The notes beneath the pieces are model-generated. The model ran no database searches and had not been told where the DNA came from. It saw only the letters and a list, made by a program, of their open reading frames with translations. This document shows, one piece after another, positions 22,846 to 26,295 of a DNA stretch of 64,000 nucleotides. Every line of letters begins with the position of its first letter. The first letter of the stretch is position 1. Origin of the DNA: Thermoproteota archaeon. Lineage in GTDB: Archaea > Thermoproteota > Thermoprotei_A > Sulfolobales > Ignisphaeraceae. The position numbers were made by a program, and so were the translations under genes. The stretch is taken from the NCBI GenBank assembly GCA_030550585.1, contig JAUQPB010000001.1:288001-352000 (forward strand), read 5' to 3'.

Positions 22846-23736
22846 ATGTATCATGTATATGCATCGTTCATTATCAATATTGTAACTTTGATCTTAAAAA
22901 TATTTGGCTTTATTGGAACGAACTCAGCCTCGCTCATAGCTGATATAATAAATGATTGTGGCGATACAATTGGGTTGGGACTGATAATTTTTGGTGTGAT
23001 GCTTGCAAATAGAAAGCGAAGCACAATTGCGTATCCTTTTGGGATGAGTAGAGCGCTCTATGTCATAGGCTTAATATCTACATCAATTATAGGCGGTTTT
23101 CTATTTGCAACATCATTTATAAACTCTATCTACGCTTTCACAACCCATAGAACAATAAACTCTAGCCTCAGATCAGTAACACTTGTTTTAATTGCCCTGA
23201 TACTAAACAGTCTTAATATCATATTCATATCTAGAACTAAGAAAAGCTTCGATATTGCAACAACAGTTACCCTTCTGGATGGTTTTGCCGATGTAGGTGG
23301 TAATGTAATAGCGTTTATATCCATCGCCATAGCAAATCCTGTTATTGATTCGATTGGAAGCTTTGTCATAACCATAATAGTCTTGATATCGTCTATAGCG
23401 GCTAGCTACAAATACTACTTGATGTTAATAGGTAGAGCGCCGCCCAAAGAAGAGATGCTGAAAATGGTTAATGCAACTTTATCTGTTTCTGGCGTATTGG
23501 ATGTCAATGAATTGAGGGCTGTTATGCTAACAGAGGATGAGTATCTAGTTATTCTCGAAGTTGAGGTAGAGGAAGAGATCAAAATAAAAGATACGGAGAC
23601 CTTCAGTAAACAAATAGAGACGGAAATTCGAAGAGCTGTTCCAAAAGCAAAGCATATAGTCATAGAATTTGTGCCCAAAAGAAAAGAGCCTCCAACATAC
23701 AAAAAGATATTAGAAGAAATAAAAGGCTTGAGATAG
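22846..23736 (+). CDS. Cation diffusion facilitator (CDF) transporter
   Basis: SASLIAD, YPFG and DSIGS motifs, about 6 TM segments, cytoplasmic C-terminal domain. Confidence 0.88.
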   Translation: MYHVYASFIINIVTLILKIFGFIGTNSASLIADIINDCGDTIGLGLIIFGVMLANRKRSTIAYPFGMSRALYVIGLISTSIIGGFLFATSFINSIYAFTTHRTINSSLRSVTLVLIALILNSLNIIFISRTKKSFDIATTVTLLDGFADVGGNVIAFISIAIANPVIDSIGSFVITIIVLISSIAASYKYYLMLIGRAPPKEEMLKMVNATLSVSGVLDVNELRAVMLTEDEYLVILEVEVEEEIKIKDTETFSKQIETEIRRAVPKAKHIVIEFVPKRKEPPTYKKILEEIKGLR

Positions 23737-24048
23737 TGCTATAAATCTAGACAGAGTCCTTTATTCCACATAGAAGATTGGATATGCCATGGCTATGACA
23801 ACAGCAATTAAATGTAGATAAATAGAAAACAACTCAAACAGTTCCCATCTTATAACATCATCTAGCTACACTATAGAAAACATCTTTGCGGCATCCTCCA
23901 CACTTGCACCCTTGTGTATAATCTCTCTAAGCGCCTTAACCAACCTCTCAGGATCTTTTGACTTAAAGATTTTTCTACCAAAAGCGATTCCAGACAGCCC
24001 AGCTTCCACAGCTATTTTCGCCAACTTTAAAACGTCAATTGGAGATGC

Positions 24049-24200
24049 GGGTTCACCTCTTTATATGTTTGTATATGTTTTTATATAAGTGGTCATCGGC
24101 TCATCTCTGTTTGGGGTGGTCTGTCGGGTTTCATCCTTCATCCCACCCCCGTTGGGGGAAGACCCAGCGCTTCCCCACATCCCCCGTAGGTAGATGTTTA
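24049..24200 (-). ncRNA. Putative TnpB omega RNA (reRNA) scaffold
   Basis: GC-rich hairpins overlapping the tnpB 3' end (24155-61/24170-76 and 24113-19/24143-49), next to the right end; boundaries approximate. Confidence 0.65.
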
Positions 24201-25290
24201 TTGCTCCAACAAAATCTCTGTCTCTTTTGAATCCGCATTTCCTGCAGATTGCTAACCTATGTATGTAGTTTAACTTTGTGCCGCACCTTGGGCATGTAGA
24301 TGAGGTGTTCCTAGGGTCTACCACAATTACTGGGACGTTGTACTCAATTGCTTTTGACATAACTGCATGCTGAAGTCTTCTATAAGCAAATAGCGTTAGC
24401 TTCCACCTAACACCACTGCTTTTGCCATTAATAGAGTTCCTCAAGTGCTCTAAATCCTCTAGTACAACTGCGTGTCCTCTTCTATATGCTTTAACTACAA
24501 CCTCCTTTGCAAGCTTCCAGCAGAAATCGTTGATGATGTTCCTAGCTTTTCTATGAAGAGCTCTAACCCTGTTTAGAATCCTATCGTTGTATCTCCACCT
24601 CTTAGAATATCTCTTCTGAATCTCTTCAGCTCTAGCCCTCTTGCTCAATGCCTCGACAAATCTTGTTCTATACCTTCTAGCTTCAGAGCCATCAAATGTT
24701 GTAACAGTTCTCAGATTCACATCAACTGCTGTTAAACCTCTTGGAACATATGGATTATACTTAACCTCGAATACTATGCTGACAAATAGCTTTTTGTTTT
24801 CATACTTTACATGAACCTCCTTCCACTTTAAATTCCTGAACCTCTCGATGTACTCTCTCCTGTGCTTCAGCCTCAGTGCATACTGCTTGTTTCTCAAAAC
24901 AACTTTGACAACTCCTTTGTCTAGCTCAACTCTTGCATCCTGGTAGTCTAGCCTAGCAGATAGTTTTCTGACACTTGGCTTGTCGCCATTGCTGTTTTTA
25001 GCGGCTTTAACCAAGGCTAGCGCATAGCTGTATATGTTTCTAGCCACATGCGCTCTAAAACCATGTTCTCTAAGCATTTGGTAAAACAATTGATGCAACT
25101 GGCTTTTCTTTGGAAGCCCATCAAAATCCCATAGAGCGTCTACAACCTTTTGCAGAGCATACCTATATATCGTTAAATCCCGCAGCAAGTCGCTAGCATT
25201 CCCTTCGACAACCTCAGCCTCTGCCTTAAAAGCTTTGTAGTATGTACCCTCAGGCATCCACCTACCGATTAGGCGGATAGACGCCTTCAT
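24061..25290 (-). CDS. tnpB: RNA-guided endonuclease TnpB
   Basis: RuvC-I AVDVN, RuvC-II VLEDL, Zn finger CPRCG/CRKCG, RuvC-III DRDFVGAINI; catalytic D/E/D intact. Confidence 0.95.
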   Translation of the reverse strand: MKASIRLIGRWMPEGTYYKAFKAEAEVVEGNASDLLRDLTIYRYALQKVVDALWDFDGLPKKSQLHQLFYQMLREHGFRAHVARNIYSYALALVKAAKNSNGDKPSVRKLSARLDYQDARVELDKGVVKVVLRNKQYALRLKHRREYIERFRNLKWKEVHVKYENKKLFVSIVFEVKYNPYVPRGLTAVDVNLRTVTTFDGSEARRYRTRFVEALSKRARAEEIQKRYSKRWRYNDRILNRVRALHRKARNIINDFCWKLAKEVVVKAYRRGHAVVLEDLEHLRNSINGKSSGVRWKLTLFAYRRLQHAVMSKAIEYNVPVIVVDPRNTSSTCPRCGTKLNYIHRLAICRKCGFKRDRDFVGAINIYLRGMWGSAGSSPNGGGMKDETRQTTPNRDEPMTTYIKTYTNI

Positions 25291-25295
25291 CGGTA

Positions 25296-25361
25296 CTCAC
25301 AACATTAGTTATTCAGAGTGCAAATTTATAAGCTTTTACACTCTACAGTTTATGTGGTGAG
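25296..25361. promoter_or_regulatory. Symmetric bidirectional promoter with nested inverted repeats
   Basis: Central TTTATAA (25325-31) flanked by AGAGTGCAAA/TTTACACTCT and CTCACAACAT/ATGTGGTGAG, each a 9/10 inverted match. Confidence 0.65.
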
Positions 25362-25365
25362 AGCT

Positions 25366-25509
25366 ATGGTCTCGATATACGTATTTGAGGCAAAAATTGT
25401 AAAGACCATGAGGAAATACCTGATATACCCACCAAAAGAATACCAAGAAAAGCTAAAGAAGCTACACGGAAAGAAAGTCAAGGTAGTGGTAATAGAAGAA
25501 AGCGATTAA
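25366..25509 (+). CDS. Small basic AbrB/DUF2080-like protein (47 aa) inside the TnpB element
   Basis: ATG at 25366 preceded by GGTGA; MVSIYVFEAKIVKTMRKYLIYPPKEYQEKLKKLHGKKVKVVVIEESD fits a swapped-hairpin pattern. Confidence 0.65.
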   Translation: MVSIYVFEAKIVKTMRKYLIYPPKEYQEKLKKLHGKKVKVVVIEESD

Positions 25510-26295
25510 AAACAATCAGATGGGAACATAAGCTAAGCCACGAAGAGCATATGCTTTTATATGCAGTCATATAAATTTTGCTACGGCTTCTCCTCCGGCT
25601 AAGACTATTGGTGTATTTGCTGATACTTTAACTACCTCCATCATAAACTTCGGGTCTGGAGGCAGATACGCTTTAACTATATCAGCACCAAGTTCTATAG
25701 CAATTCTCATAGCCCTTAGCACACCCTCTGGATCATCGAAACTCTTGAACCTATCTAAAGATGGGAATACCTCTACTGCACATGGAATTCCAAATCTGTC
25801 AGCTGAATCGCAAACCCTGCTCACCACCTCAATACTTGTTGACTCATATTTTCCACCAACATATAAGGATGCTATAACAGCATCGGCGCCCAGAGAAACA
25901 GCTGTTTCAACACTATAGGTATGTGCTTCAATTAACCCCCTATCCCTATTAAATAGTGAAAGAGCTGTGACCCTAGCCATAATCCCTACCCTGCCAGCAA
26001 TTTCTTTATAGACCTTTTTAATAATACCTGGTTGAAGAATGAGTGCATCAGCACCCCCTCTAACAACTGTTTTCACAATGCTAAGAATATCCTCGAGTCC
26101 CTCAACTATTCCATAGCCTCCATGGTCAAGCGCCACTATAAGAGCTTTTTCTGTATCGGGATTCAGTATCCTATACAACCTTACATATTTGCCTATGTGC
26201 ATGTCTGAGAGCCCTCTAGCATGTTACAAAAGATCAAAAGTAGTTTAGATCCAAGATGTAGGTATGCCAGCAACAGAATATATAAATTGGTGGTT

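Follow-up and report, generated by a model that had tools for sequence, protein, structure and literature searches.

How is the nuclease TnpB kept under control in an element that carries no transposase of its own, and what is the tiny protein encoded back to back with it? The question is raised by a locus in a 64,000-nt stretch of contig JAUQPB010000001.1 (positions 288,001 to 352,000) from a Thermoproteota archaeon of the Ignisphaeraceae; this whole stretch is called the window below. The locus is a TnpB-bearing insertion sequence (IS) in which tnpB has as its head-to-head neighbour the gene of a basic protein of 47 amino acids (aa). TnpB, from which Cas12 descends, is also a compact enzyme for genome editing, and its control within its own elements is only now being resolved, as in the case of Arc in bacterial IS605 elements. 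Comparison with relatives supports the view that the element is a non-autonomous derivative of the IS607 family in which the transposase gene tnpA has been replaced by the divergent 47-aa gene. The 47-aa protein itself may be an AbrB/MazE-like (cradle-loop) dimeric regulator of the element's bidirectional promoter, a reading that draws on sequence comparison, structure models and analogy and to which a probability of about 0.5 is given here.

Element limits and IS607 kinship

Both flanks of the element belong to one DhnA-type aldolase gene, which the element has thus split by inserting itself (Table 1). In the two other copies of the own genome, likeness to the window begins at 24049 and stops at 25588, and the same limits were found in three further copies from two other genomes. 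The preliminary description of the locus had set the span at 24049–25586; its left limit stands and its right limit is corrected by two empty sites. In a genome of the same genus (G196) the aldolase is uninterrupted and reads GGAGGAGAAGCA^GCATCTCC (^ marks a junction), where the window reads GGAGGAGAAGCC[element]GCATCTCC. One contig of the metagenome run X1, from a related strain with 12 differences per flank, joins 24049 directly to 25586, exactly 1536 nt being skipped. These empty sites show that the AGCC at 25585–25588 is target DNA, its GCC (25585–25587) abutting the left end, and the element proper ends at 25584, with 24050–25585 as alternative limits owing to a 1-nt ambiguity. The empty site GAAGCC^GCATC becomes GAAGCC[element]GCATC without target duplication, and the CC present at both junctions (AGCC^GT... 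and ...AACCC^) would suit the crossover core of a serine recombinase. The own genome holds three copies in all, including a second full copy on contig C3 (89% identical) and a third, internally deleted, on contig C7, and further copies are located elsewhere in the genomes of relatives; this multiplicity, together with the empty sites, demonstrates that the element is mobile.

The own genome, which is 99.9% complete, has no match to the serine recombinase family PF00239 or to the Y1 transposase family PF01797, and any mobilisation must be in trans because it encodes no serine recombinase. Among the 351 genomes of the class, 173 have a match to PF00239 and 54 one to PF01797. A TnpB search of the genome contigs for related loci gave six loci. 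The IS607 elements with the best Pfam scores (L065–L094) were considered as matching relatives and rejected, as they belong to a different clade with the right end GGGACAAACGG; the TnpBs beside the best-scoring sampled transposases are 23–33% identical to that of the window. Matching TnpA-bearing relatives emerged only through sampling by TnpB. This sample consisted of the first 80 qualifying rows from 150 matches listed (there were 36 further), qualification requiring a match that begins by query residue 40; own-genome rows, later-starting rows and one contig-edge row were left out, and about 800 nt upstream of each relative was inspected. Among the matches listed, four of the 80 relatives have a complete serine recombinase gene immediately upstream of tnpB and running the same way, one has a partial one, and 67 carry a homologue of the small protein divergently upstream (called with the A2 profile at E up to 0.01). 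The 13 relatives without such a homologue comprise these four full and one partial recombinases, three with other cargo, two too near a contig end to judge and three with nothing recognised.

The TnpA-bearing relatives have TnpBs 49–51% identical to that of the window, tnpA in the slot held by the small open reading frame (ORF) and almost the same ends. The left end of L213 reads AGCC^GTAGCAATGTTTATATGATTG..., within AAAGCC^GTAGCAATGTTTATATGATTGTATATG, and the right end of L211 reads ...CATATAAAAACATATACAAGTATATAAAGAGGCGAACCC (also given as GATGAGCCGATGACAATTCATATAAAAACATATACAAGTATATAAAGAGGCGAACCC). More broadly, the left end of the window's element recurs in the TnpA-bearing L213, the AbrB-bearing L219 and L037, a nearly identical right end is present in the TnpA-bearing L211, L213 and L214, and the right-end terminus RAACCC is kept in every subfamily. 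The autonomous IS607 elements L211–L214, from other Thermoprotei genomes, share with the window's element the TnpB clade, the guide-RNA scaffold, the 5' hairpin, the lack of target duplication and nearly the same ends (left GCC^GTAGCAA.TTTATATGA.TG, right ...CATATAAAGAGG.GAACCC). They measure about 2.1 kb compared to 1.5 kb for the window's element, which lacks tnpA and has instead the divergent 47-aa gene with its own half of the promoter. In a tree rooted on other IS607 TnpBs, all 18 small-ORF-linked rows, the four TnpA-bearing rows and the others form one clade with a support of 100 (Shimodaira–Hasegawa-like approximate likelihood ratio test, SH-aLRT), and within a nine-row subclade (SH-aLRT 98) the cargo switches between near neighbours; the tree comes from a quick search, with rows picked partly by their neighbours. 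The early proposal of a TnpA-less, IS607-like element mobilised in trans is supported by these sisters with matching ends and by the lack of PF00239 in the genome. A tnpA with matching ends had been named as something to look for elsewhere in the own genome, where it is absent; it is present in other genomes (L211–L214). Elements of the IS1341 group and PATE/MITE-like derivatives, in ISfinder usage, likewise encode no transposase, depend on mobilisation in trans and retain tnpB along with the two ends; they are defined by tnpB alone, whereas the window's element adds a second selected gene and a mini-derivative of its own (C7).

Instead of classical terminal inverted repeats, the element has short subterminal repeats. 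These were first described as lying in the same orientation at both ends, and their occurrence holds (TTTATATG/CATATAAA at 24060, 25556 and 25568), but the point is weaker than first described: TTTATATG is found both ways round at the left end, and among relatives most repeats at one end are inverted with respect to those at the other. The number of TTTATATG 8-mers in the window is not significantly raised either (10 versus 6.0 +/- 2.2 expected, 10 being reached by six of 100 shuffles). The end repeats carry weight through their conservation in relatives and not through their count. The repeat types TTTATATG, AAAGTAAT and CTGTAAATA differ wholly from one subfamily to another.

The small gene in the transposase slot

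The preliminary description had placed a basic 47-aa ORF head to head with tnpB in the position usual for tnpA, and this arrangement is borne out: the protein has an isoelectric point (pI) of 9.6, the two start codons lie 75 nt apart (ATG to ATG) and sisters hold tnpA at the same place. In five copies whose DNA differs by 10–25%, the protein is identical or has one residue changed; the proportion of synonymous differences (pS) among five close copies is 0.10–0.42, compared to 0–0.018 for nonsynonymous ones (pN), and pN/pS is at most 0.06. By this codon comparison the small ORF is a real gene under strong purifying selection. It was also considered as a fragment of tnpA, and this was rejected, as tblastn against 60 TnpA loci gave no match. 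The sequence GGTG stands 5–9 nt before its ATG in 25 of 30 loci (by-eye reading).

The conservation of the ORF and its co-occurrence with tnpB, both named earlier as points to check, were found on a wide scale. A word-indexed search returned 114 clusters of about 47 residues, whose named sources are Desulfurococcales, Vulcanisaeta, Ignisphaera and Thermoprotei; all are labelled 'hypothetical' and have no Pfam domain. A search of 1.84 billion representatives gave 33 matches, all of them small proteins of the same family except P0124 and P0140, which are repeat proteins and were judged spurious. Within the class, matches are present in 101 of 351 genomes (58 of the 202 of high quality), and a single genome can have as many as 14. 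When loci were picked by the small ORF, tnpB was divergent directly upstream in 26 of 30; two others end at a contig edge, and the remaining two (L023 and L032) have no tnpB within 1.5 kb. Further subfamilies, of 47–50 residues each, accompany TnpBs 35–39% identical to that of the window, and the small protein is still 54–62% identical where TnpB identity falls to about 30%. Additionally, the small ORF stays intact beside a broken tnpB in L016, L018, L033, L034 and L039, as well as in the C7 mini-copy. The own genome also has a stand-alone paralogue of 49 aa (MSEVYVF...GIYIPKSVAEKMG...; G000:C4:81809-81940, L221:1995-2141, minus strand), which has a membrane-protein gene on either side and no tnpB in its vicinity, L023 and L032 being similar solo copies in other genomes.

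What else can occupy this slot is seen in sister elements with the same ends. In L220 (G111:C7) it holds a canonical AbrB/MazE gene (PF04014, E 1.7e-11) divergent from tnpB, in L219 (G111:C1) an AbrB/MazE gene recognised by its KYQVTIPKIVREKL motif, and in L216 (G112:C77) a ribbon-helix-helix (RHH)-like gene with a match to PF01402 at E 0.083 only. Because sisters carry AbrB/MazE, RHH-like or tnpA genes there, the 47-aa protein fills a slot used by small DNA-binding proteins, and this position is the strongest argument for a DNA-binding identity of the protein itself, which the comparison of loci would suggest. One hyperthermophilic archaeal IS607 lineage thus fills its transposase slot in four ways, with a serine recombinase, with canonical AbrB, with an RHH-like protein or with the 47-aa family, which is unannotated; nature provides here a set of exchangeable control modules that go with the same nuclease and the same guide-RNA scaffold. 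The sisters L216, L219 and L220 have in addition an ORF of 80–89 aa before tnpB and co-directional with it, which bears the motif YWKRLGQ.ELLE and belongs to no Pfam family.

An accessory mini-regulator inside a TnpB element is of a kind already published, although the 47-aa family lacks a Pfam model; the suggestion that the locus represents an undescribed class is not supported. Altae-Tran et al. (PNAS 2023, PMC10691335) describe archaeal tnpB genes (crenarchaeal and euryarchaeal) paired with a tiny AbrB/MazE or RHH gene, with room left for a guide RNA, and a clade RIIIr-4 in which the RuvC-III Asp is replaced by His, the pair is non-mobile, tnpB is 'downstream' and the arrangement is read as a toxin-antitoxin system. 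Like these pairs, the small gene of the window adjoins tnpB, and sisters L219, L220 and L216 carry exactly such genes as that text describes; unlike RIIIr-4 as described there, the window's element has an invariant D359, is mobile, has its two genes in divergent orientation and encodes a small protein that the Pfam AbrB model does not recognise. The overlap of the 47-aa family with the 'MazE' branch of that study, compared here by text description alone, may be larger. The 2026 Arc preprint (bioRxiv 10.64898/2026.09.24.754181) reports an RHH repressor that sits inside IS605-family elements and represses the element's own genes. The likeness lies in a small DNA-binding accessory protein (here predicted) encoded within a TnpB-bearing IS; in a comparison that is shallow, Arc is bacterial, of IS605 (Y1) context and of RHH fold, whereas the window's protein is archaeal, IS607-derived and probably of a different fold family.

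Possible roles of the 47-aa protein

Several fold signals agree on a likeness to AbrB; they are weak, in sequence and in models, and each alone is insignificant, and AbrB membership of the protein is unproven. PF04014 (MazE/AbrB) matches two of 27 small-protein relatives at E 0.0076–0.022, below the cut-off, the better being the stand-alone 49-aa paralogue of the own genome. Against the nine bona fide AbrB domains of the own genome, hhalign gives a probability of 25.9% (E 7e-4, 28 columns) in the expected strand-strand-helix-strand register. The nearest named cluster in the Protein Atlas, with PF04014 on 15% of its members, scores only 0.80. AlphaFold monomer models (pLDDT, the predicted local confidence, 87) consist of a hairpin and a helix, and the best structural match of both models is 8jvq, a designed dimeric RIFT half-barrel (Foldseek E 1.3, TM-score 0.54; VIA Z 2.9, root-mean-square deviation 2.7 A, 42 of 44 residues aligned). 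A complex prediction of TnpB with two copies of the 47-aa protein scored 0.01, in a run made without control runs. The likeness to DUF2080 (PF09853, 'transposon-encoded protein') that had been put forward fails, with no match at E up to 1 either to the protein or in a six-frame search of the genome.

The intergenic region offers a candidate operator. A single TATA box lies about 34 nt from each start codon and is flanked by inverted arms, AGAGTG (25315–25320) and CACTCT (25339–25344), and GGTGA (25356–25360) stands 5 nt before the ATG of the small ORF. Mirrored arms around a TATA-like core reach at least 5 nt in 15 of 28 loci and at least 6 nt in seven, and their sequences differ from subfamily to subfamily. 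In the scheme preferred here, the element inserted at ...GAAGCC^GCATC... in the aldolase gene without target duplication, and it can move only when a matching TnpA, of which the own genome encodes none, is supplied in trans. A dimer of the 47-aa protein would sit on the dyad around the single TATA box and block TBP/TFB, so that both genes would be shut off and the protein would govern how much nuclease, and how much of the protein itself, is made; that it has this fold, binds DNA, uses the dyad as operator and regulates in this direction are all predicted features of the scheme. Arc in bacterial IS605 elements is reported to follow the same shut-off logic, and the discussion of archaeal RHH-TnpB pairs in PMC10691335 comes close to it.

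A number of observations weigh against this regulator model. The window's protein has no match in Pfam or NCBIfam at E up to 1, and profiles compared with PDB sequences gave no meaningful match (best E 1.1 for A2 and 0.063, to uL24, for A6). In the monomer model both terminal strands are unpaired, and Foldseek found no match at E 0.001 or better, with Z below 3 throughout the wide VIA search. The arms are shorter than 5 nt in 13 of 28 loci, and the per-locus shuffle p is mostly 0.02–0.17; for this reason, and because the loci are related, the dyad is only suggestive. Conservation of the protein far exceeds that of the arms, as would be easier to understand if its partner were a conserved protein or RNA than if it were a sequence-specific operator. 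Finally, the gene remains intact where tnpB is dead, deleted or absent, and its role is then not solely to hold TnpB in check.

Unlikely, though the best placed among the alternatives, is that the 47-aa protein binds TnpB or its ribonucleoprotein (RNP) and inhibits it, so that a nuclease prone to target its own host would be restrained much as a toxin is by its antitoxin. The small gene has been closely linked to tnpB for a long time, and both TnpB and the promoter arms are less conserved than the protein, as would be expected of a protein partner. AbrB-type antitoxins grip their toxin by a tail, however, and the 47-aa protein stops right after its last strand without such a toxin-gripping tail; it also persists where the neighbouring tnpB has decayed, where most of tnpB is deleted, as in the mini-element, and where it stands alone, and the TnpA-bearing sisters lack it. 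A toxin-antitoxin-like model of this sort is in print for archaeal RHH/MazE-TnpB pairs (PMC10691335).

Next in rank, and doubtful, comes a role as an accessory factor of transposition that would bind the subterminal repeats or a TnpA acting in trans and help or block mobilisation. The gene occupies exactly the tnpA slot and is present in none of the four TnpA-bearing relatives, the two being mutually exclusive in the sample; it is kept in the mini-element, where most of tnpB is gone and both ends are retained; and small-ORF elements outnumber TnpA-bearing ones by 67 to 4–5 of 80 among the matches listed. On the other hand, the end repeats are wholly different by subfamily while the protein core is invariant, and the stand-alone copies lie away from any element end.

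A longer shot is that the 47-aa protein and TnpB make up a self-sufficient selfish module that thrives without a resident transposase, the protein being something other than a plain promoter repressor. The protein and the kink-turn-like hairpin on the tnpB start codon would gate expression of the nuclease, and TnpB would cut empty sites, whose repair from a filled copy would spread the element in archaeal populations that exchange DNA. If true, this would explain the excess of small-ORF over TnpA-bearing elements, the presence of several copies at different sites in the recombinase-free genomes G000 and G196, and a protein more conserved than the rest of the element.

That the protein binds RNA instead, either the hairpin at the tnpB start or the guide scaffold, and so controls translation of TnpB or assembly of the RNP, is improbable. 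It is small, basic (pI 9.6) and very conserved, and the RNA motifs GAUGAGGG...CCYGA and AUGAAGGAUGAAACCCGA are likewise very conserved; but hairpin and scaffold are equally present in TnpA- and AbrB-bearing sisters that lack the 47-aa protein, and archaeal kink-turns are normally bound by L7Ae, their usual binder. The hairpin itself has a minimum free energy of -30.9 kcal/mol (z -4.55), and none of 200 shuffles is as stable. Its pattern runs closing stem, GAUGA, RGG...stem-loop...CC, YGA, closing stem, which folds as a 5+3 asymmetric loop, and the motif with a covarying closing stem recurs in 29 of 37 relatives. A kink-turn has a closing stem, a 3-nt bulge, tandem G.A/A.G pairs and a second stem, and the 5' hairpin has the look of one in its sequence; it suggests translational control of tnpB by L7Ae or another binder, which would add a second layer to the promoter control assumed in the regulator model.

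Very improbable, last, is a placement of the element among the TnpB-only elements of IS200/IS605 type (Y1, single-strand; IS1341 kind), with insertion 3' of AGCC: AGCC does precede the left end in all six close copies and in many distant subfamilies, with no duplication, and the left end could form an 8-bp hairpin (TTTATATG-ACTG-CATATAAA), but this hairpin is not kept in L037 or L213, every transposase found beside a TnpB of the clade with these ends is a serine recombinase, the Y1-linked TnpBs of the class are only 23–29% identical and form a group apart, and the CC at both junctions resembles a serine-recombinase crossover core.

Nuclease, guide RNA and other copies

Table 1. Features of the element and of its target gene (positions in the window)
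Feature	Position	Strand	Remarks
Whole element, 1,536 bp	24049-25584	(-), in tnpB orientation	non-autonomous IS607-family IS (supported); limits common to 5 other copies
Left end	25548-25584	(-)	GTAGCAAAATTTATATGACTGCATATAAAAGCATATG; subterminal TTTATATG/CATATAAA repeats
Right end	24049-24095	(-)	...CTTATATAAAAACATATACAAACATATAAAGAGGTGAACCC; subterminal repeats
47-aa basic protein gene	25366-25509	(+)	MVSIYVFEAK...VVVIEESD; invariant core YPPKEYQEKL..HG
Shared control region, 75 nt	25291-25365	(.)	single TATA box TTTATAAG (25325-25332)
Kink-turn-like hairpin	25236-25300	(-)	5' end of tnpB mRNA; first AUG inside GAUGA strand (25291-25287)
tnpB, 409 aa	24061-25290	(-)	RuvC D190/E278/D359 and zinc ribbon intact
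Guide-RNA (omegaRNA) scaffold	24049-24190	(-)	terminates at right end ...GGUGAACCC
Presumed guide portion of omegaRNA	24029-24048	(-)	flank just 3' of right end (GCATCTCCAATTGACG...); inferred
Interrupted aldolase, N-terminal part	25585-26202	(-)	DhnA-type aldolase / ADH-synthase-like; NF005556 positions 2-207
Interrupted aldolase, C-terminal part	23866-24048	(-)	NF005556 positions 217-264

TnpB itself matches PF07282 (Cas12f1-like_TNB; E 1.4e-18, 67.3 bits with a cut-off of 26.3) and the NCBIfam model NF040570 guided_TnpB (121.6 bits, cut-off 100). The intact RuvC triad noted at the outset was confirmed, the three residues being invariant in 15 of 15 aligned relatives, and a solved Cas12f aligns with RuvC-II and RuvC-III of the protein, the RuvC-III motif being RDRD.

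The guide-RNA scaffold is read through by the last ~40 codons of tnpB, and in the last ~140 nt before the right end conservation extends past the stop codon. It has two covarying stems (about 24113–24176); its GGGU loop and its two ACCC motifs do not vary. The two stems were named by eye and then counted on alignment A4, where their 14 pairs are 90.3% paired and 12 of the 14 show compensatory changes on both sides; this pairing was reached by none of 500 shuffles, and slid controls were 39–63% paired. RNAalifold on the wide alignment A3 gave one stem only, the single-sequence fold has a z of -1.4, and Rfam searched on 23700–25900 at E up to 1 gave no match. Solved TnpB RNPs contain a pseudoknot, and by analogy the GGGU loop and the two ACCC motifs could form one here. 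The flank after the right end differs in all six copies, as expected of a guide, and we take it to be the guide portion following the established TnpB model. Now that the ends, the AGCC target motif and the place of the guide have been defined, assays of TnpB and of transposition would be straightforward to set up.

Further copies and fragments were seen outside the window. A full copy with 86% DNA identity is located at G120:C7:27013-28549 (L058, L125), and because that genome belongs to a different family of the same order, it points to recent horizontal transfer. The mini-copy on C7 (G000:C7:213962-214950) has an in-frame deletion of TnpB residues about 94–273, which removes RuvC-I, whereas the small ORF, the 5' hairpin, the scaffold of the guide RNA and the two ends are all retained. 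An identical deletion joint occurs in a contig of metagenome run X5 (window 24462->25022), and since this is another run, the mini-element itself seems to propagate. Two short solo right-end matches in the own genome (G000:C3:236991-237052 and G000:C1:3715-3750), the first of which runs on into what looks like a degenerate guide RNA, are probably what is left of older copies. In L106 (G149:C1:13064-16420), a TnpB of this family with 60% identity is cut at residue ~135 by an IS605-type element that carries a Y1 tnpA and its own tnpB, a transposon nested in a transposon. In L021 (G008:C4), a right end of the same subfamily is found reverse-complemented (GGGTTCGGGTCTGAATGATAC) beyond the stop of the small ORF, where a left end would be expected, which suggests two abutting copies or a rearranged element.

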